A stretch of 32,000 bases of DNA from Acaryochloris marina S15 (GCF_018336915.1 NZ_CP064923.1:4800001-4832000); one strand, 5' to 3'; shown: positions 1 to 6,690, numbered from the stretch's first letter. Numbers and translations: made by a program. The notes: generated by a model not told the origin, from the sequence alone.

Positions 1-176
1 GTCTGGTGTCCCCTTACTCACGTTTGAACACATTATTGCTTAGAATTTTGGAGTCCCAACCTATAGCTGACCCTGCTATGCTGGAATTATTGATCCAAAC
101 AGTAAGTCAAGCTCAAGCCTCAACTGATGCGTCTTGGGCCAGTGTTCAAGAGGTCAAACGAGTTTGGAGGCTTTGA
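1..176 (+). CDS. 3' end of an unidentified CDS entering from the left edge (partial)
   Basis: Frame 3 is open from the window edge to TGA at 174-176 (...LELLIQTVSQAQASTDASWASVQEVKRVWRL*). The stop shares its A with the ATG of the next ORF (TGATG). No family recognised. Confidence 0.3.
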   Translation, partial: LVSPYSRLNTLLLRILESQPIADPAMLELLIQTVSQAQASTDASWASVQEVKRVWRL

Positions 177-352
177 TGGCAGATAACAAAACAGCGATTC
201 CAAGCATTGAAGAAAGGCAACAGGCTCTTGAAATGCTAAGAGTGAGCAACCAACAGTTGGAACTCACCGCCATAGCATTAGACAAACTGATAACCACAGT
301 AGAGACAGGTCTAAGCCGACAATATCACCAGCGCGTGGAGAAAAGCCTCTAG
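176..352 (+). CDS. small hypothetical protein (58 aa from ATG 176; predicted helical)
   Basis: The ORF track gives 134..352 from a TTG. The ATG at 176 (MADNKTAIPSIEERQQALEMLRVSNQQLELTAIALDKLITTVETGL...) overlaps the upstream stop in TGATG, which suggests translational coupling. No family recognised. Confidence 0.35.
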   Translation: MADNKTAIPSIEERQQALEMLRVSNQQLELTAIALDKLITTVETGLSRQYHQRVEKSL

Positions 353-467
353 CAGCTCTACTTCCTAACAAGTTTGTCTCAGGGGCGCAGGTGGAATTTG
401 AAAAATCTCCATAGAGGGTGCGCATTGTTAATGCCGTACACTCCGTATAAGCGAGACACACTAAGGT

Positions 468-1007
468 CTAATAGTATTTTTCAGGGAAACCATAAAGCAG
501 TTCACTCGGATAGGCTGTATCAACTAGAAATTCAGAAACTTCGACATCAAATAATTGGCTGATCGAATACTTATCGAGGTATTCCTTGATTTGACTTGGA
601 TTTGAAAGATCGTAGTCATTGATGTATTGATCAACAATTTCACTGCGCAAAGAATGCAGCCATCTCTGAGGAAAATCACTGTCTAAGTCTGAATCAAAAA
701 AAGGAATTAATAAGAAGATAGGATCCAGCTTTTCTGAAGATTTACTCTGCAATATTGGCAGAGGTTGCAGAATACATATTCCTCTATTGATACGAGCATC
801 CGACCAATGTTCGAATTTCGGTAGTGGCGGGAAAAATCTACTAATCCCTGTGTCGCAGGCGGCTCGCCATTCAGCCATACCAGATGTATAGACTAACGTT
901 TTTTGATTGACTACATTTGTTAATGCCAGCTCTCTAAGTTGAGCGAGAGAGATAGGGCCTACAACTTCTTTGCCAACCATATAATGCCAAGCATCATTGT
1001 CGCTCAT
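468..1007 (-). CDS. GYF_2 (DUF4339-type) domain protein with an unrecognised C-terminal half
   Basis: The N-terminus WHYMVGKEVVGPISLAQLRELALTNVVNQKTLVYTSGMAEWRAA fits the bacterial GYF_2 pattern (W-y-y..G...GP.s..eL..l...g.i...tlVw..GM.eW..a). The rest is unrecognised. The locus is AT-richer than the surroundings. Confidence 0.6.
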   Translation of the reverse strand: MSDNDAWHYMVGKEVVGPISLAQLRELALTNVVNQKTLVYTSGMAEWRAACDTGISRFFPPLPKFEHWSDARINRGICILQPLPILQSKSSEKLDPIFLLIPFFDSDLDSDFPQRWLHSLRSEIVDQYINDYDLSNPSQIKEYLDKYSISQLFDVEVSEFLVDTAYPSELLYGFPEKYY

Positions 1008-1199
1008 ATCAGCATTTAATTGATTTTGGTAACAGCTTCACGAAGTGCCATCAAAGGTACGAATGGCTATCAGAAAAGTTCAATAAATCGCTCAAGTCTA
1101 AGCTTTCCTTGCACAGGATGAATTAGATAACGCAACAACAAAGAGTGACTTATAAAACTATAGGTGATCTCCCATCTACCCCAAACACATAGAAAATAT

Positions 1200-1715
1200 T
1201 TAGAACGTCACATACAGCCCACTCTGTCGCGCAAGGCAACTTCTGAGGAATGAAAGGTACTCTATCGTCAAGGAATTATCCGACTTAGATAGAAGTTCAA
1301 AGGACTGGCTTACCTCATCTGGTGATTGAAAATACGATCCCATTTTCCCTGGATCAAACGGATTGAAAGAAGGTCCAACGGTTTGACCCAACAGAGCGGC
1401 TTGGGATGAGTGAGTTAAACAATCGCCACAATCAAGCCATGCAGAACCGATACCAAAATCTTTGATTGGATCATAGAAGCGGGTAATCGCAAAATCTCCA
1501 AGTGTGTGAACATCATGAACATTTTCTACTTGTGTTCGCCAATCTAAATTGAGAGGTTCCCCTTCATATGGATCAACAAGGAATCGCACATTTTCTTCTA
1601 TGTATGAGTGCAGTGGAACTACATCATTTGATGCAAGAGCATTATGTAAAATCGTGAGAAAGTCAGTCTTAAAAAACTGCCAATCAAATTCGAAAGCTTT
1701 ATGCTCCATCGACAT
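1200..1715 (-). CDS. hypothetical protein, 171 aa, no recognised domain
   Basis: Clean 171-aa ORF with protein-like composition (MSMEHKAFEFDWQFFKTDFL...GLYVTF). It starts 16 nt after the GTTAACC core of the downstream attC-like element. AT-rich locus. Confidence 0.5.
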   Translation of the reverse strand: MSMEHKAFEFDWQFFKTDFLTILHNALASNDVVPLHSYIEENVRFLVDPYEGEPLNLDWRTQVENVHDVHTLGDFAITRFYDPIKDFGIGSAWLDCGDCLTHSSQAALLGQTVGPSFNPFDPGKMGSYFQSPDEVSQSFELLSKSDNSLTIEYLSFLRSCLARQSGLYVTF

Positions 1716-1731
1716 AAATCAAAGTTGGATC

Positions 1732-1821
1732 GGTTAACGCCCAAAATCACCGGGCCGCTGCTAGCGACGCTCCATTTAAATCTGACTGAATCGGCGGCTC
1801 CGGTGCATGTATTTGTTAGGC
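1732..1821 (-). mobile_element. attC-like imperfect palindrome 2 (3' of the tandem-TIR gene)
   Basis: Minus-strand read: GCCTAAC (7/7 to RYYYAAC, contains the TAA stop) - aaatacatg - CACCGGaGCCGC - 35-nt loop - GCGGCCCGGTG - attttgggc - GTTAACC (6/7 to GTTRRRY). The stem runs 1748-1758 against 1794-1805, 11 bp, with one bulged base (T1799 on the + strand). Homologous along its length to 2694-2794. Confidence 0.5.
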
Positions 1822-2667
1822 ATTTTTTACGCCGAGTGCAAAATCGAGTGCGCGCTGAAAACGGGATAAAGGGATTCCGTGCTCCGTTCGTTCTAAGTCA
1901 GACGAGTGATAGTTCAGCCAATGATATTTCTTCAACGCCTCTGGTGGTTCACAGTCTGTGTCCAACAAAACGGGAATAATGTAGATTTCGCCCTCTGGCA
2001 CCTCCTCTGCGACCTCAACGCTCTTGCGCAGTTCTTTTTGAAAGTAGCCGCGCTTAGCTATTGCATTGGAAGAGAGCAGCGGCATAAACACCTGAGATCG
2101 ACGAATAGCCCTTCGGATTTCAAGCCCCCAATCCTGGCCGGGAATTAATGACTCTTCGTCGAACCAGAGTCGGTATCCCATTATCTTGAGTTTTTCGTAA
2201 ATCGTACGGGCAATTTCCACGTCGACGCGCGAATAAGATAGGAAAATCTGGTCGGAGCTGCGCTGGTGCCGTTCTCCCAATTCATCCACGTGTCTAAGAA
2301 TCTCGTTGATCGCAGCATCTTCATCGCCATCAAAGTAAACAAGTCGTTCTCCAGCAAGATATTTCGGCGCACGGCTAACAAGCTTTTGTGTGGTGAGCAA
2401 GACGGTCCGATGGTCGTTGCCGTGACCAGTGAAAAAGGCAATCTCACTTGCCACATTTGCGTACCATGTGGTGTGCAAACCAACAGCAACCAATGTGTCG
2501 GCATTCCGAATTGCTTTCGCGACGTCATCATCAACGAACGAAAACTCGGAAAAATCGGCCCGGATTTGTTCACCAGCGATCGCTTGGTGTCCTGATTTTG
2601 TGATGCGCTGCGCAATCTTGAGAGCGAATTCCTTGTCGTAGTTGGTATGAGCGACGAAAACAATCAT
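1816..2667 (-). CDS. tandem TIR-domain protein (N-terminal degenerate TIR-like domain plus C-terminal canonical bacterial TIR_2 domain)
   Basis: The C-terminal half IFLSYSRVDVEIARTIYEKLKIMGYRLWFDEESLIPGQDWGLEIRRAIRRSQVFMPLLSSNAIAKRGYFQKELRKS...IIPVLLD is a textbook TIR_2 pattern. The N-terminal half MIVFVAHTNYDKEFALKIAQRI...AIRNADTLVAVGLHTTWYANVASEIAFF repeats the same layout (beta-A strand, then the S/E helix). Confidence 0.8.
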   Translation of the reverse strand: MIVFVAHTNYDKEFALKIAQRITKSGHQAIAGEQIRADFSEFSFVDDDVAKAIRNADTLVAVGLHTTWYANVASEIAFFTGHGNDHRTVLLTTQKLVSRAPKYLAGERLVYFDGDEDAAINEILRHVDELGERHQRSSDQIFLSYSRVDVEIARTIYEKLKIMGYRLWFDEESLIPGQDWGLEIRRAIRRSQVFMPLLSSNAIAKRGYFQKELRKSVEVAEEVPEGEIYIIPVLLDTDCEPPEALKKYHWLNYHSSDLERTEHGIPLSRFQRALDFALGVKNA

Positions 2668-2693
2668 CTGAATGCCTAAATATACTTATGAAT

Positions 2694-2794
2694 ACCTAAC
2701 GTCTGGCATAATCGGGCCGCCGCGATTGATGCTCTATTTGAAAACGTGTTGAAAACGTGCTGACGGGGGCTCCGCGTTCATGCCTTTGTTATGC
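2694..2794 (-). mobile_element. attC-like imperfect palindrome 1 (3' of the TIR-like/CHAT-like gene)
   Basis: Minus-strand read: GCATAAC (6/7 RYYYAAC, contains the TAA stop) - aaa - GGCATgAA - cg - CGGaGCC ... loop ... GGCCCG - a - TTATGCC - agac - GTTAGGT (7/7 GTTRRRY), ending 26 nt before the ATG of the next gene. Stems on the + strand are 2705-2711/2777-2784 (bulged C2779) and 2713-2718/2768-2774 (bulged T2771). Homologous to 1732-1821. Confidence 0.5.
2738..2759. repeat. perfect tandem duplication of an 11-mer (TTGAAAACGTG x2) in the loop of attC-like element 1
   Basis: 2738-2748 and 2749-2759 are identical. This block is the main length difference between the two attC-like elements. Confidence 0.9.
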
Positions 2795-3814
2795 GATATT
2801 GGAAAACATCTTGGGAGGCTCCTCATCGCTGTGGTCAATATTGAACTTGGCGACTCCGTTATCATATGCAGTCCGGTAGTCGCTGCTGTTACCAATTGCG
2901 GTGTAGAATCCACTGGTAAACACTGTGGCCCCTGCATCGGAGATGATTCCGGTCGCACCGATGGTGAATGGGACATCAGCGGACACACGCTCGGCCAATC
3001 CATCAGTTTCGCAGCACGAGAACAGGACGCATTCGAGCTTCTTTGCGAGCGGGCGAAGGAGCGCATGGAATAAATCGTAGCTCACAGCTTTAGTGGTACC
3101 ATCCGATGATTCAAACAGAAATCCGCCTGTCTCCGTGCCAGAGCACGACAAATGAAGGATTTCGGGATGGTGCAAAAGCAGTAATCGATCCAAGTCGTGG
3201 GCTTGCACGGCCCACTCTTGTTCAAGAACTATTTCACCAGATCGACGTGCAGATTCGAGTGCCCGCGTAATTCGCCGCACCTCACAATCCATTCGAAGCC
3301 GATTCTCGTCAATCGGATTGGCACAGAGCACCAGTACCTTTCGTGCGGCTTTCCGCTGACCCCAATTTTGTAATTCTTGCCGAATCGTGAAGCATGCGGG
3401 ACCGACCGCGGTCAATAAGTTTCCTTGGTCCGCACTGCGGTAAGCGGCAAAGGTCACACCATGGAGGTCACTGATAACGTCAGGCTTGGCACTTGCGTCG
3501 AAAACAGCAAATGTCCGTGAACGCCCGACGTGACCATAGAAAAGTCCAAGTTCAAAAAGAACGTTTCCGCGCGTAGTTCCGGTCTCCGCTCCGCGGCTAA
3601 CAAGAGTATCGTCGCTGCGAAGAACGAAAATGCCGTAGTCGAATTGCTTGACGGTGTCCACCAACGTCTCAAGATAGCCATGCGATAGACTGAATACACC
3701 TTCGTTCCAAAGGACGACCTCGGCGGCGTCAGCGAGTTGGTGTTGGATCGCTCTGGCAACATCAAGCCCTTCAGACGACGACCCAATGAAGACTCGTGGT
3801 TTTTGTATTGTCAT
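2789..3814 (-). CDS. fusion protein: N-terminal Cap12/PycTIR-type TIR-like domain (PF10137-like) plus C-terminal short CHAT/caspase-like domain
   Basis: From ATG 3814: MTIQKPRVFIGSSSEGLDVARAIQHQL...DYGIFVLRSDD...TRGNVLFELGLFYGHVGRSRTF...ISDLHGVT matches the 'VFIGSSSE ... RDNVLFELGLF.G.LGR.R.F ... PSDL.G' signature of the TIR-like nucleotide-binding family. The C-terminal KVLVLCANPIDENRLRMDCEVRRI...EWAVQAHDLDRLLLLHHPEILHLSCSG...LECVLFSCCET...FTIGATGIISDAGATVFTSGFYTAIG matches the 'ILFLAANP.D...L.LD.E.R.I...WA.R..DL...L....P.IVHFSGHG...CVVLN.CYS...VIGM...I.D.AA..F..GFY.ALG' CHAT-type pattern. I reject the 28-aa N-terminal extension in the ORF track (start 3898) because it lies outside the domain and reads as low-quality sequence. 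Confidence 0.75.
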   Translation of the reverse strand: MTIQKPRVFIGSSSEGLDVARAIQHQLADAAEVVLWNEGVFSLSHGYLETLVDTVKQFDYGIFVLRSDDTLVSRGAETGTTRGNVLFELGLFYGHVGRSRTFAVFDASAKPDVISDLHGVTFAAYRSADQGNLLTAVGPACFTIRQELQNWGQRKAARKVLVLCANPIDENRLRMDCEVRRITRALESARRSGEIVLEQEWAVQAHDLDRLLLLHHPEILHLSCSGTETGGFLFESSDGTTKAVSYDLFHALLRPLAKKLECVLFSCCETDGLAERVSADVPFTIGATGIISDAGATVFTSGFYTAIGNSSDYRTAYDNGVAKFNIDHSDEEPPKMFSNIA

Positions 3815-4464
3815 TTGTTCGATCGCATAACTATAATTAGCAGGCAAATTGCCTCTTAACACGAAAAAAAGAAGGGCTAGTTGTCGTCTCAAAGCCAAGC
3901 TATCTCTACATTAGCATCTCTGATACAAGGCCAAGCTTTACGGAAAATCGCCGATATGTAAAATCGATTCTGAATGCCTATATATAAGGCAGGAAAAGCG
4001 TTGCCAGTATATTGGCTATGCACCTATGAAGAATGTTAATAGGCAAAATAACCGTATAAGTTCCAATATCGGCTATTAACAGGCACTCTATGGCACCTAC
4101 CAACCCTCATAAACTTTTCGGCTAAGTTTGTGAGGTAATACGCGAGCCAAACATGACACTTACAGCACTGAGAAAAATTACATGCAGTGGATACGGTGCT
4201 TGATTCCCTTCCACAACGAAAGTCATCTCAAAGAAATGGCCGAACATGAAGTCGAAGCCTTTCTTACCCTCGATACAATAGTAAAAGTGCATAGGCATCC
4301 CATATTTAACGCTTAAGTGCTCAGCCCGCACTCAACCAATTGTCCCTCTTTAATCCATCGCTGACCATCACCATATGGTCATGACAGGCATTTCATTTAG
4401 AACTGCTCCAATCTCGAATAAAGGGTGCCTATATTGCTACCGCTCGTTTAGGAAGGTTGAAAAA

Positions 4465-5088
4465 ATGGATAGTAGTCATCCACTAGCCACTAGCCAGCGG
4501 CTCTCCTTTTTTACCTTAGCTGTACAAGCCTATCGCCAAGGCAAGCTAGGAGATGTTGCCGCTTATAAATCTGCAATATTAGGCACTAAAACTTATCCAG
4601 AAATTGCAGAAAAGCTCTCTAGATTGGCAACCTGCTTTCCTCACATTGATTTAGCAGCCTTAAGAAGGCTACCAGAAGGAACCTTTGGACAGATCTATGC
4701 CCAGCATATGGATGAATTCCATCTAACGCCATTGGAGATTAGCCCAGACGTCATCGCTCAATTGTCAGATCAATCTTTGGGACTGCGCTATACCCTCCTC
4801 CATGATGTGTTTCATGTGCTGTTAGGGTATGACACCAGCTTGGTCGGAGAAATGGGGGTGTGGGCCTTTGTCGATGCCCAGCAGTATAGTCCTAGCTATC
4901 AGACAGCAGCCTGGTTAGCCCATTACTTATATCCCTTCGTCATTCCGCACCGATACCGCCAACTACGTGCTATCGAGCAGCAAAGTCGTCAACTTGGACA
5001 GCAAGCAGCCTGCATCATCGCTCAACCCCTCGAAGACTATTGGTCAGAACCCCTCTCTATGGTTCGATCGCGCCTAGGGTTGGCATAA
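4465..5088 (+). CDS. Coq4-family protein
   Basis: LRYTLLHDVFHVLLGYDTSLVGEMGVWAF fits the Coq4 family motif (HD..H.L.G....-.GE). The ATG at 4465 is preceded by GGAAGG about 9 nt upstream. The ORF-track start at 4375 adds a Cys-rich, unlikely leader. Confidence 0.6.
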   Translation: MDSSHPLATSQRLSFFTLAVQAYRQGKLGDVAAYKSAILGTKTYPEIAEKLSRLATCFPHIDLAALRRLPEGTFGQIYAQHMDEFHLTPLEISPDVIAQLSDQSLGLRYTLLHDVFHVLLGYDTSLVGEMGVWAFVDAQQYSPSYQTAAWLAHYLYPFVIPHRYRQLRAIEQQSRQLGQQAACIIAQPLEDYWSEPLSMVRSRLGLA

Positions 5089-5169
5089 AGACTTCAACCC
5101 TAGAGAAGCTGGGTTGCTTCCAGGGGGTAAGAATTCTAAACCTCAAAGTTTTGAGATTTTAATGCGCCA

Positions 5170-6690
5170 CTAATCCCAGGAGTCATCCGTTTTGACGGGA
5201 GCACGACCGTAGGTGTCAGTGAGTTGCAGTAACCGTTCTGCGATCGCATCCGTCAATCCACCCGAACGATACCGCCAAGCCCAGTTCCCCCCCGACGTGC
5301 TGGGTAAGTTCATGCGGGCCTCGGTCCCTAACCCCAGCAAATCTTGCACCGGGATAATCACCTGGTTGGCAACGGAACTCAAAGCCAGTCGCATTAAATC
5401 CCAGTGAATGCCTTCCTCTGAAAAACCGCCCATATAGCCTTCCACAAACACCCGCTCATGGTCAGGCATATCTTGAAACCAGCCCACTGTCGTGTTGTTG
5501 TCGTGGGTGCCGGTATAAACCAGGCAATTCTGCACATGGTTAAAGGGCAGGTACGGATTGCCAGAACCAGAGCCAAAAGCGAAGTGGAGAATCTTCATGC
5601 CGGGAAATTCAAACTTATCCCGCAGCTCTTCCACATCGGGGGTAATGATGCCCAAGTCCTCGGCCAGTATCGGCAGATTGCCCAGTTCATCTCTGAGGGC
5701 TTCGAATAGCTCATCTCCAGGAGCTTTGATCCACTCTCCGTTCATGGCAGTGGTTTCCCCTTGCTTGACCTGCCAAAAGGCTCGAAAGCCCCGGAAGTGA
5801 TCCACACGGATCAGATCCACATAGTCCAGCATGGTGCGGAAACGCTGAATCCACCATTTGAAGCCTTGATGTTTCATCCGCTCCCATTGGTAAATGGGAT
5901 TACCCCATAGCTGCCCCGTATCACTAAAATAATCTGGTGGCACCCCAGCCATCAGCGCCGGTTCGCCTGTTGCTGGATCTAAGAAAAATTGTTCAGGATT
6001 GGCCCAAACATCTGCACTATTGTGAGCCACATAAATGGGAATATCACCAATAATCTGAATGCCGTTATCGTTGGCATACTTTTTCAAATTAGACCATTGC
6101 TGAAAAAACTGAAACTGCCAAAACTTATGCATCTCCACATCAGACTGCAGCTTTTGTCGCCAATGGGCCATGGCAGCGGGTTGCCGTTGGGCAATCTCTT
6201 GGGGCCAAGTATTCCAAGCAGCCCCCCAATGGGCATCTTTGAGGGCCATAAATAAGGCCAGATCTTCTAACCAGACCCGAGTTTGACAAAAATCTCGAAA
6301 GGCGACGGCGAGTTCTGGAAAGACCCCAGCCTTAAAGTTGTCATAGGCCCGCCGCAGCAGACCGAGCTTCATGGGGAGAACCTGCTCGTAGGCAATCGTC
6401 TCGGGTCGAAAGCCGACCCCTAGCTCTAGGTCTTCTTCTTGCAGCAATTCCTGCTCTTGCAGTTGCTCAAGACTAATTAATAAGGGATTGCCCGCCATGG
6501 CTGAGTAGCACATATAGGGAGAGTTACCGAACCCCGTTGGCCCCAAAGGCAATACCTGCCAAAGTTGCTGACCACTCTTGGCCATAAAATCAACAAATCG
6601 GTAGGCTTCTGGCCCTAAATCACCGACTCCAAATCGACCAGGGAAAGACGTAGGATGCAGGAGAAGGCCACTAGCTCGGGGGAAGGGCAT
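5170..6690 (-). CDS. malQ: 4-alpha-glucanotransferase (amylomaltase)
   Basis: Full-length 506-aa match to the MalQ/disproportionating-enzyme pattern (MPFPRASGLLLHPTSFPGRFGVGDLG..., IIGDIPIYVAHNSADVW, GVPPDYFS.TGQLWGNP, YTGTHDN.T..GW). Confidence 0.95.
   Translation of the reverse strand: MPFPRASGLLLHPTSFPGRFGVGDLGPEAYRFVDFMAKSGQQLWQVLPLGPTGFGNSPYMCYSAMAGNPLLISLEQLQEQELLQEEDLELGVGFRPETIAYEQVLPMKLGLLRRAYDNFKAGVFPELAVAFRDFCQTRVWLEDLALFMALKDAHWGAAWNTWPQEIAQRQPAAMAHWRQKLQSDVEMHKFWQFQFFQQWSNLKKYANDNGIQIIGDIPIYVAHNSADVWANPEQFFLDPATGEPALMAGVPPDYFSDTGQLWGNPIYQWERMKHQGFKWWIQRFRTMLDYVDLIRVDHFRGFRAFWQVKQGETTAMNGEWIKAPGDELFEALRDELGNLPILAEDLGIITPDVEELRDKFEFPGMKILHFAFGSGSGNPYLPFNHVQNCLVYTGTHDNNTTVGWFQDMPDHERVFVEGYMGGFSEEGIHWDLMRLALSSVANQVIIPVQDLLGLGTEARMNLPSTSGGNWAWRYRSGGLTDAIAERLLQLTDTYGRAPVKTDDSWD

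Follow-up and report, generated by a model that had tools for sequence, protein, structure and literature searches.

The Acaryochloris marina locus described here, which lies in a 32,000-nucleotide stretch of DNA that was analysed as a whole (the window), is very probably a degenerate chromosomal integron consisting of a dead integrase gene (intI), an attI site and two cassettes that each carry a TIR gene. A remnant of intI on the plus strand (positions 4090–4316) points away from the attI crossover (G3831|T3830), beyond which follow the two cassettes on the minus strand. The original prediction, made from the DNA alone, was that two attC sites bound two co-oriented single-ORF cassettes. This is upheld by a 217-copy family of the same element arranged in arrays, by covariation within that family, by chimeric cores in 161 cassettes and by an array beside a bona fide IntI. 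The locus is a clear but ordinary case of an already known kind of element. Because the intI remnant and a conserved attI-like core sit directly upstream of the cassettes, in divergent orientation, we read it as a complete integron that has since decayed and not as an orphan cluster.

The intI remnant comprises 75 codons and reads MAPTNPHKLFG*VCEVIR / AKHDTYSTEKNYMQWIRCLIPFHNESHLKEMAEHEVEAFLTLDTIVKVHRHPIFNA*. It is interrupted by an in-frame stop (4123–4125) and a frameshift near 4143, and it is truncated: codons 1 to about 58 are left of what would be an intact gene in a complete integron, and nothing is left beyond about residue 60, the catalytic domain being lost as well. The last 44 codons appear in GenBank as a hypothetical protein (the 44-aa ORF P0001, Acaryochloris marina). 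NCBIfam matches to the remnant are confined to two integron-integrase models, TIGR02249 and NF011946, the former with E 1e-7, or 5e-9 once the frameshift is repaired, at 31–36 bits against a cut-off of 265. Pfam PF13495 is matched at 41 bits (cut-off 27), and a tblastn search with IntI1 matches positions 4143–4268. The remnant is also 50% identical over 52 aa (E 7e-15) to residues 7–58 of P0026, an intact cyanobacterial IntI (TIGR02249, 460 bits). The earlier view that the window holds no tyrosine-recombinase gene is correct for intact genes, and tblastn finds no other recombinase in the window, but it missed the pseudogene fragment at 4090–4316 on the plus strand.

Between the remnant and the first cassette lies a 38-nt attI-like core (3826–3863, minus strand) with the sequence GTGTTAAGA-GGCAATTTGCC-TGCTAATTATAG|TTATGC and the crossover at G3831|T3830. 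Aligned with the sequence immediately 5' of an intact cyanobacterial intI (locus L056, 4109–4147), the core scores 42, against 18.5±2.3 (maximum 31) for shuffled sequences. The L056 site also ends in CTAG|TTAT, and two further GGCAAnTTGCC repeats are found upstream of it. By sequence, and by its place between intI and the first cassette, the core is a putative attI. The heptamer GTTAAGA (3860–3854), originally taken for the upstream junction of a 1,160-bp cassette A and flagged as the least certain part of that proposal, falls within this core and is not a junction. A promoter-like site on the same strand (3830–3859; TTAAGA, 18 nt, TATAGT) ends at the crossover. It matches at 9 of 12 positions in a consensus scan in which such sites are no more numerous in this region than shuffles lead one to expect, and is a possible Pc-type promoter for the cassettes.

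Operationally, the locus fits the description 'CALIN-like' under which it was first presented, with two attCs at a distance of 962 bp and, in the whole 32 kb, no integrase that is intact. The label is operational only, since an N-terminal intI pseudogene is present and, together with the attI-like core, adjoins the cassettes. IntegronFinder screens for pseudogenes with a C-terminal IntI profile and PF00589; it would miss the N-terminal remnant of the window and call a CALIN. We consider it highly unlikely that the locus is a true orphan, its cassettes put at a secondary chromosomal site by an integrase from elsewhere and its SAM-like fragment an unrelated tyrosine-recombinase relic. CALINs are common and a recognisable intI pseudogene lies near only about 5% of them (PMC4889954); moreover, the fragment is N-terminal domain only, and PF13495 occurs in other recombinases, such as that of locus L050. 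However, integron integrases are the sole NCBIfam families that the fragment matches, and whereas it shares half its residues with an intact cyanobacterial IntI it has no similarity to the IS91-associated recombinase of L050. The fragment diverges from the cassettes, with its start codon 258 bp away from their first junction, and the junction itself falls inside a motif shared with the region upstream of this intact intI. In situ loss of intI from a once complete integron is visible as the origin of the locus because the remnant and the attI-like site are still adjacent, a circumstance that distinguishes it from most CALINs.

The two hairpins 3' of the TIR genes are supported by their sequence features as genuine integron attC sites. 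The first, attC_A (2694–2794, minus strand, 101 nt), extends from R'' GCATAAC (2794–2788) to R' GTTAGGT (2700–2694); its inner parts are L'' GGCAT[G]AAC and L' TTATGCC, its bulged bases on the top strand are G16, G20 and A24, and its loop contains an 11-nt tandem duplication (2759–2738). The second, attC_B (1732–1821, minus strand, 90 nt), extends from R'' GCCTAAC (1821–1815) to R' GTTAACC (1738–1732), with bulged G16 and A23 on the top strand. Its L box is partly degraded, three of five outer pairs being intact, and L-box mismatches are present in both sites. The recombinogenic bottom strand of attC_A is predicted to be the plus strand of the window. Both lengths lie within the range of known attCs (57–141), and the RYYYAAC and GTTRRRY cores are common to the class 1 site attCaadA7 and to VCR2 of Vibrio cholerae (PMC5027507). 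The units also resemble textbook cassettes in having a stop codon in R'', one ORF per cassette and a G|TT crossover.

The original prediction had placed and spelled both elements correctly throughout, including the TAA stop inside each R'' and the distances of 26 and 16 nt that separate R' of attC_A and attC_B, respectively, from the next ATG; the four plus-strand blocks that it listed as shared occur in both. Its claim that the elements are homologous is borne out by a local alignment score of 33, against 16.3±2.2 (maximum 26) in 1,000 shuffles; the two are 64% identical. Similarity begins exactly at R'', and genes A and B themselves have no shared DNA similarity (score 26, shuffles 21.6±2.2).

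The two elements belong to a widespread family. An exact pattern derived from the pair matches 51 stretches in species-representative genomes, where about one is expected by chance on our own estimate. A family-specific covariance model, R1, was built and used as attC detector; it scores attC_A at 66.2 bits (E about 1e-14) and attC_B at 76.5 bits (E about 1e-17). R1 identified 217 copies in 50 fetched loci, mostly of Planctomycetota and Blastocatellia, with none in two chance matches to coding sequence (L021 and L040). In the 32-kb window, neither R1 nor nhmmer detects any copy besides these two, both of which lie at ORF 3' ends. Elsewhere the copies are co-oriented in cassette arrays with a median spacing of 638 bp, and they follow unrelated genes. 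In 87% of the 132 spacers above 400 bp the attC top strand encodes the longest ORF, and this ORF takes up over 60% of its spacer in 70% of cases, versus 11% for the other strand. The family cores have the consensus G-[C/G]-[A/C]-T-A-A-C and G-T-T-[A/C]-[T/G]-N-C (217 copies). The link to an integrase is direct in locus L053, where a full-length IntI (P0007; TIGR02249 346.8 bits, cut-off 265) is encoded divergently from 11 family attCs in the canonical orientation; L005 is laid out likewise, except that its intI is truncated.

When integrons recombine at G|TT, they leave R'' complementary to the core of the upstream repeat, and this signature is widespread in the family. R'' and the upstream R' are full complements in 77% of 161 cassettes, whereas the cassette's own R' reaches this in 13% and a random R' in 6% (Wilcoxon p = 2e-18). 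Bounded according to the G|TT rule, cassette A of the window (2700–3830, minus strand) is 1,131 bp long, from TTATGC to the G of R', and not 1,160 bp as first proposed. Its 5' TTATGC is complementary to R'' GCATAAC at all four variable positions, and GTTATGC (3831–3825) is the only one of four GTT heptamers in 3815–4100 that matches the reverse complement of this R'' at 7 of 7 positions. Cassette B (1738–2699, minus strand) measures 962 bp, and its R'' GCCTAAC matches the upstream R' GTTAGGT at three of four variable positions, its own downstream R' at two of four.

These data leave very little room for the elements being generic dispersed palindromic repeats (REP/BIME or MITE-like) or a 3' UTR or terminator duplicated behind both genes. 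Cyanobacterial genomes are indeed rich in short repeats, HIP1 occurring 16 times in the window against 0.5 expected, but the present element occurs just twice in the 32 kb, each time at the 3' end of an ORF, and forms arrays elsewhere. Co-oriented arrays, one ORF per unit and chimeric cores are predicted by neither REP, MITE nor terminator. A terminator could draw on a weak terminator-like site on the plus strand (1790–1804) that overlaps element B. It is the sole such overlap: neither element has a terminator-like site on the minus strand and, as noted from the outset, no T-tract follows either hairpin on the coding strand. Each element is closer to planctomycete copies than to the other element of the window, which argues against local duplication: attC_A is 76–80% identical to attCs of Pirellulales and other genomes, the 11-nt insertion making up much of the difference, and attC_B is 74–78% identical to attCs of Planctomycetaceae-type arrays.

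That the attC sites form imperfect hairpins with bulged bases, as had been proposed, is established by covariation in the wider family and not by folding energy. In the family hairpin 87.5% of cells are paired, as against 31–44% with slid partners; the helix of L box and stem is 93% paired, with seven pairs changed on both sides, and none of 500 shuffles reached the observed covariation score. Covarying base pairs occur in the R box, the L box and the upper stem, accompanied by two bulged bases, with compensatory changes in the L box and upper stem. By contrast, thermodynamic folding of the two elements is not significant (MFE z-scores of +0.5 to −1.3), and the MFE fold of element A lacks the long-range hairpin. 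The bulges fall at positions 16/(20)/23–24 and, as in the attCs analysed in PMC5027507, the first and last are separated by a 6-bp stem and the distal one reads T on the bottom strand, the top strand having A there in 97% of copies.

Four features set the family apart from textbook attCs. The usual extrahelical bases of the bottom strand are G16 and a conserved T (PMC5027507), whereas position 16 in the family, typical as a position but atypical in base identity, carries a bottom-strand C, its top-strand counterpart being G in 89% of copies. The central spacer, which stays unpaired, measures 4 nt on the 3' arm and, in 97% of copies, 3 nt (AAA) on the 5' arm, instead of 5–6 nt. It is shorter because the L box is two pairs longer, and the positions of the bulges are therefore preserved; the short spacer is a variant that does not disqualify the elements as attCs. 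A bottom strand that is more stable or purine-rich has been reported for attCs of mobile integrons, but the family appears to lack a purine skew between strands, the mean GC skew of the top strand being +0.02; the bottom strand exceeds the top strand in stability by only 0.24 kcal/mol on average and is the more stable one in 55% of copies. Finally, the family is strongly conserved in sequence, and even part of the loop is kept across genomes. This loop conservation and the covarying hairpin might also suit a structured RNA in the 3' UTR of TIR mRNAs, such as a stability or regulatory motif, but we give this reading virtually no weight because Rfam, a database without an attC family, holds no family that matches the element, the arrays place it behind unrelated genes, the family is associated with IntI, and complementarity of R'' to the upstream repeat core is a signature of DNA rearrangement that has no RNA rationale.

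Both cassette genes are, judging from their domains, likely anti-phage genes. Gene A (2789–3814, minus strand, 341 aa) encodes an N-terminal TIR domain of the CAP12/Pycsar type, matching Pfam PF10137 (E 2e-26) and the PADLOC TIR effector models (E 5e-43), followed by a CHAT-like C-terminal domain. The C-terminal half has no Pfam match itself; a protein 52% identical to gene A (P0067) matches CHAT (PF12770) at 27 bits (cut-off 24). Gene A has cassette-borne homologues elsewhere: those in L057 (identity 79%) and L058 (identity 42%) lie next to attC-like sites that are of other types. Gene B (1816–2667, minus strand, 283 aa) encodes a tandem TIR protein, with a weak N-terminal and a strong C-terminal domain: residues 141–256 match Pfam TIR_2 with E 4.5e-31, and the N-terminal half scores 25.7 bits, just below the cut-off of 28. 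The PADLOC matches of gene B are to pAgo-associated and ThsB-like models, in their TIR domains.

On the model of integrons studied elsewhere, each cassette would be a promoterless unit, a single TIR-domain gene ending in an attC whose bottom strand, the plus strand of the window, would fold into the hairpin. The extrahelical C16, sometimes the base at position 20, and T23/24 would set which strand IntI cuts. The cassettes would have entered attI successively, the chimeric R' core of the attC being the trace of successive insertion, and cassette A, which is nearest attI, would have arrived last. As the integrase retains only its first ~58 codons, the array is probably immobile now, except where an IntI is supplied in trans. 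Neither ORF is disrupted, and both are presumably transcribed by read-through, the promoter lying in the attI region; the proteins are most likely TIR effectors that degrade NAD+ or act in signalling, as part of phage defence of the abortive-infection type.

Sedentary chromosomal integrons hold more than 10–19 cassettes with homogeneous attCs, and the window locus, with two cassettes and two attCs of different subtypes, is not such an array. Its compact, single-gene TIR cargo is comparable to the defence cassettes described in sedentary chromosomal integrons (bioRxiv 10.1101/2024.07.02.601686), a study that makes no mention of TIR, cyanobacteria or Planctomycetes; the integron of the window differs in being dead and tiny, and its defence role is a predicted one. 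With the chromosomal arrays of Planctomycetota and Acidobacteriota it shares its attCs, which are 74–80% identical to those of Pirellulales, Planctomycetaceae and others and score 66–77 bits against the model built from these. However, the arrays hold tens of cassettes rather than two, and the window host is a cyanobacterium in which the integrase remnant and attI are of a cyanobacterial lineage.

This mismatch between attCs and integrase raises the idea, which we put forward tentatively and on balance doubt, that the two cassettes are cross-phylum imports. Cassettes that originated in other phyla would have been taken up by a cyanobacterial IntI, a single attC subtype would persist near-unchanged across at least five phyla, and the TIR-CHAT fusion of gene A would represent a one-gene anti-phage system, as yet uncharacterised, that turns up repeatedly as a cassette with several different attC types. 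Elsewhere the two attC subtypes of the window belong to Planctomycetota, with near-identical counterparts in Brocadiae, in MAGs or genomes of delta- and gammaproteobacteria and in MAGs of Spirochaetota. The locus is notable for combining TIR defence cargo with planctomycete-type attCs in a cyanobacterium. Types of attC have been described as taxon-specific (PMC8352920); if the import reading is true, an attC subtype circulating across at least five phyla would conflict with that view.

The locus is a decayed integron, comprising a dead integrase gene (intI), an attI site and two TIR cassettes with their attC sites. Each of the two TIR-domain genes, A (3814–2789, minus strand; 341 aa) and B (2667–1816, minus strand; 283 aa), is followed at its 3' end by an element of ~90–100 nt (element A, 2794–2694; element B, 1821–1732; both minus strand). 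On that strand, both open with an RYYYAAC-type R'' core that contains the TAA stop of the gene (GCATAAC, 2794–2788, and GCCTAAC, 1821–1815) and end in a GTTRRRY-type R' core (GTTAGGT, 2700–2694, and GTTAACC, 1738–1732). These cores, stop codons and coordinates were described in the original prediction as they stand in the window sequence, and the homology it proposed between the elements holds: their local alignment scores 33, against 16.3±2.2 (maximum 26) for 1,000 shuffles. The likeness begins exactly at R'', and local alignment found no DNA-level similarity between the coding regions of the two genes. Neither nhmmer nor the covariance model found a third copy in the 32-kb window, and an Rfam scan of 1–6000 returned no relevant family, Rfam holding no attC model. 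Beyond the last attC (468–1715, minus strand) lie a 171-aa ORF without a family match and a 179-aa GYF_2-domain ORF, in DNA of 40–43% G+C, lower than the cassettes (50–54%) and the flanking genes. With filters off, no more degenerate attC was found 3' of either, and because none follows them these ORFs are probably not cassettes.

The elements belong to a large repeat family. A pattern made from the blocks common to both matched 51 stretches in a collection of species-representative genomes, where about one match would be expected by chance (our own arithmetic estimate rather than the output of a tool). The hosts are mostly Planctomycetota (Pirellulales, Planctomycetaceae and Kuenenia) and Blastocatellia, with single matches in Spirochaetaceae, Verrucomicrobia, a deltaproteobacterial MAG, a Clostridia MAG and Colwellia; none of the 51 is from a cyanobacterium. 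Two Rhodospirillales matches, inside coding sequence, were discarded as chance, and R1, the covariance model built from the family, passes over both. In fetched loci R1 found 217 copies: they form co-oriented arrays of up to 16 per 8 kb with a median spacing of 638 bp, and range from 54 to 141 nt (median 91). In 87% of spacers above 400 bp, the longest ORF runs along the R''-to-R' strand; it occupies over 60% of its spacer in 70% of cases, compared with 11% for the other strand. On one Blastocatellia contig (CAVSKO010000002; L006, L018 and L025) runs of attCs stand only 241–246 bp apart, start to start, and the 'cassettes' between them, at ~150 bp, are too short for ordinary genes.

Structural support for the imperfect hairpins of the original prediction comes from covariation and bulge positions, not from folding energy. 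Fifty members were aligned and the pairing of R box, L box and upper stem was assigned manually; 87.5% of cells are paired in this scheme, falling to 31–44% if the 3' partners are shifted. Six positions not fixed by the search pattern show compensatory changes, the observed covariation score was not reached in any of 500 shuffles, and two bases of the 5' arm are never paired. Single-sequence DNA folding gave minimum free energy (MFE) z-scores of +0.5 to −1.3 for the two elements, and the MFE structure of element A is not the long hairpin; since these values are not significant, we dropped folding energy as evidence for the attC reading.

The geometry is close to that of the textbook attC, in which the R''-L'' arm carries bulges at position 16 (on the bottom strand usually a G), in some sites at 20, and at 23 or 24 (a conserved T), with a 6-bp stem from the first to the last bulge, a central spacer of 5–6 nt and a length of 57–141 nt (PMC5027507). 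Counted from the 5' end of R'', the bulges of element A fall at 16, 20 and 24 and those of element B at 16 and 23, and the 6-bp spacing is kept in both. As in the textbook site, the bottom strand has T at the distal bulge (top-strand A) in 97% of family copies. The first bulge differs, being G on the top strand and so C on the bottom in 89% of copies, as does the spacer, at 3/4 nt, owing to two extra pairs in the L box. Neither purine skew nor bottom-strand stability gave a clear signal in the family, and no purine skew was detected. The L box of both window attCs has a few mismatches, consistent with drift once the integrase was lost.

The strongest argument for cassettes comes from the cores. 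The original prediction had circularised cassette B at G|TT and matched its two cores; we widened this comparison to 161 units. In 77% of units all four variable R'' bases are complementary to the R' of the repeat upstream; full complementarity to the unit's own R' is seen in 13% and to a random R' in 6% (Wilcoxon p = 2e-18 for the upstream excess). Such complementarity is the expected product of G|TT recombination and, on sequence evidence, identifies the mobile unit of the family as the integron cassette. Together with an integrase associated with family attCs elsewhere, this shows the cassette interpretation to have been right in substance, with the start of cassette A moved to 3830.

That integrase is P0007 (327 aa), encoded in locus L053, which scores 346.8 bits on the NCBIfam integron-integrase model, above its cut-off of 265, and lies divergent from 11 family attCs in the canonical arrangement. 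The same divergent layout is seen in Thalassoglobus neptunius, with a truncated intI. Most called genes in the array of L053, a complete integron (L053:4300–9900), lie on the strand opposite the attC top strand, among them a DNA methylase, whose ORF contains one attC match, and an Acb2/Tad1-like anti-defence hairpin protein with an HTH partner. Recombinases beside attCs in two further loci, L045 and L050, were rejected as integron integrases, being tyrosine-recombinase partners of inserted IS91-type transposases. One and the same flank of 12 nt, GCGGCTTACTTG, directly adjoins the AAC of R'' in three attCs from three planctomycete genomes (L045:5691–6822, L050:1662–3959 and L014:6038–6131). It forms, in L045 and L050, the terminus of an element encoding an IS91-type transposase (Zn_Tnp_IS91 and Y2_Tnp) and a 305-aa XerA-like tyrosine recombinase that scores under the IntI cut-off, which suggests an insertion sequence with the attC crossover point as its target. 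Another protein, P0010, passes the integron-integrase model (357 bits) but was set aside as main evidence, as it directly adjoins phage protease, portal, terminase and capsid genes (L054:1–8200; L055:789–6200). Family attCs lie upstream of it at 1–88 and 696–790 of L054. P0010 occurs on 14 contigs, the two loci given here representing 2 and 8 samples, and may mark an integron inside or abutting a prophage.

The window was thought to have no integrase in view; it holds the remains of one. A tblastn search with IntI1, used as a probe only, matched 4143–4268 (plus strand), within an intI pseudogene at 4090–4316 (plus strand). This 75-codon stub reads, with one frameshift, MAPTNPHKLFG*VCEVIR/AKHDTYSTEKNYMQWIRCLIPFHNESHLKEMAEHEVEAFLT..., and ends before the Coq4-like gene that starts at 4375. 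The only NCBIfam families it matches are two integron-integrase models (E 1e-7 to 5e-9), its score for the SAM-like N-terminal domain clears the Pfam threshold, and over 52 residues it is 50% identical to positions 7–58 of P0026, an intact IntI from a cyanobacterial MAG (460 bits on TIGR02249). No similarity to the IS91-linked recombinase was found. Everything past about residue 60 of the integrase is gone, the catalytic domain included. A MAFFT alignment placed the last 15 residues of the remnant at the IntI C terminus, after an internal deletion; HMMER and BLAST do not support this and we do not claim it. The 44-aa ORF at 4182–4316 (plus strand), annotated in GenBank as hypothetical protein I1H34_21885, is the tail of the pseudogene, its last 44 codons.

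Between the start of intI and gene A are four GTT heptamers. GTTAAGA (3860–3854), tentatively taken in the original prediction as the start of cassette A, matches the cassette's R'' at 5/7 positions, whereas GTTATGC (3831–3825), 10 nt before the ATG, matches at 7/7 and is the only exact complement among the four. The surrounding 38 nt, GTGTTAAGAGGCAATTTGCCTGCTAATTATAG|TTATGC (3863–3826, minus strand), align to DNA just upstream of an intact cyanobacterial intI in locus L056 with a score of 42 (shuffle maximum 31), and the L056 site ends CTAG|TTAT. Two further GGCAAnTTGCC repeats lie upstream in L056, which we take to be reminiscent of the integrase-binding repeats of attI1. There, the attC nearest attI among R1 matches (2555–2645) has an R'', GTATAAC, that fits the junction at 6/7 positions. 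The exact complement and the attI alignment thus define cassette A as 3830–2700 (1,131 bp) and cassette B as 2699–1738 (962 bp), both on the minus strand. A promoter-like site at 3859–3830 (minus strand), a consensus match only, ends at the crossover.

A defence function for both cargo genes is predicted from domain matches alone. Gene A begins with a CAP12/Pycsar-type TIR domain (PADLOC E 5e-43); its C-terminal half has no Pfam match of its own, and in P0067, a homologue at 52% identity, that half matches CHAT. Gene B encodes a tandem TIR protein (Pfam domain search). R1 found no matches in the loci of gene A homologues. Reading of the flanks by eye, rather than R1, located attC-like sites around two full-length homologues, one at 79% identity (L057; R'' GCCTAAC, upstream core GTTAGAC) and one at 42% (L058; R'' GCATAAC, upstream core GTTATGC) that neighbours Mrr-type nuclease and TIR cassettes. 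Judged from these flanks, both homologues are cassette-borne, with other attC types. The same reading found no such sites in the flanks of homologues in L060 and L061, and a metagenome scan for gene A relatives yielded no confirmed locus. Look-ups of the A. marina locus returned nothing for the Coq4-like protein, gene A or the 44-aa ORF, and the sole match to gene B was a 4.2-kb Logan contig identical to the window.

The attCs also bear on where the cassettes came from. Element A is 76–80% identical to attCs of Botrimarina, Adhaeretor, Novipirellula, Kuenenia and a deltaproteobacterial MAG, much of its divergence being an 11-nt tandem duplication in the loop (2759–2738, minus strand; CACGTTTTCAA twice) that is absent from all related attCs. 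Element B is 74–78% identical to another attC subtype, and the two elements are only 64% identical to each other. The attCs of the L056 cyanobacterial integron share the geometry and the CATG...CGGA motif but score only 20–34 bits with R1. attC types are reported to be specific enough to assign cassettes to taxa, with separate models for Cyanobacteria and Planctomycetes (PMC8352920). Most simply, two cassettes from different planctomycete-type pools would have been captured by a cyanobacterial integron, a reading that MAG contamination and incomplete cyanobacterial sampling keep from being firm. There are 16 copies of the HIP1 motif (GCGATCGC) in the window where 0.5 would be expected, in keeping with a cyanobacterial genome. 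Just one of these sites (2576–2583, inside gene B) falls in the first 5.2 kb; a HIP1-poor integron region is compatible with foreign origin, on counts too small for a test.

IntegronFinder would probably call the locus a CALIN, a cluster of attC sites without a nearby integrase, because its pseudogene screen uses a C-terminal IntI profile and PF00589 (PMC4889954). Cyanobacterial integrons, CALINs, intI pseudogenes and defence cassettes are all already on record, the last as defence cargo in integron cassettes (10.1101/2024.07.02.601686), and the interest of the locus is therefore moderate. It displays at a single site one way in which orphan attC clusters can form: intI has decayed to a stub while attI, two attCs and both cargo genes stayed intact. 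It is a cyanobacterial addition, beyond Vibrio, to the recent observation of phage-defence genes in integron cassettes, and indicates two compact candidate defence cassettes, TIR-CHAT and tandem TIR. Finally, the attC family, with its high sequence conservation and C rather than G as first bulge, has members in phyla ranging from Planctomycetota to Acidobacteriota, and could serve as a tracer of cassette traffic between phyla.
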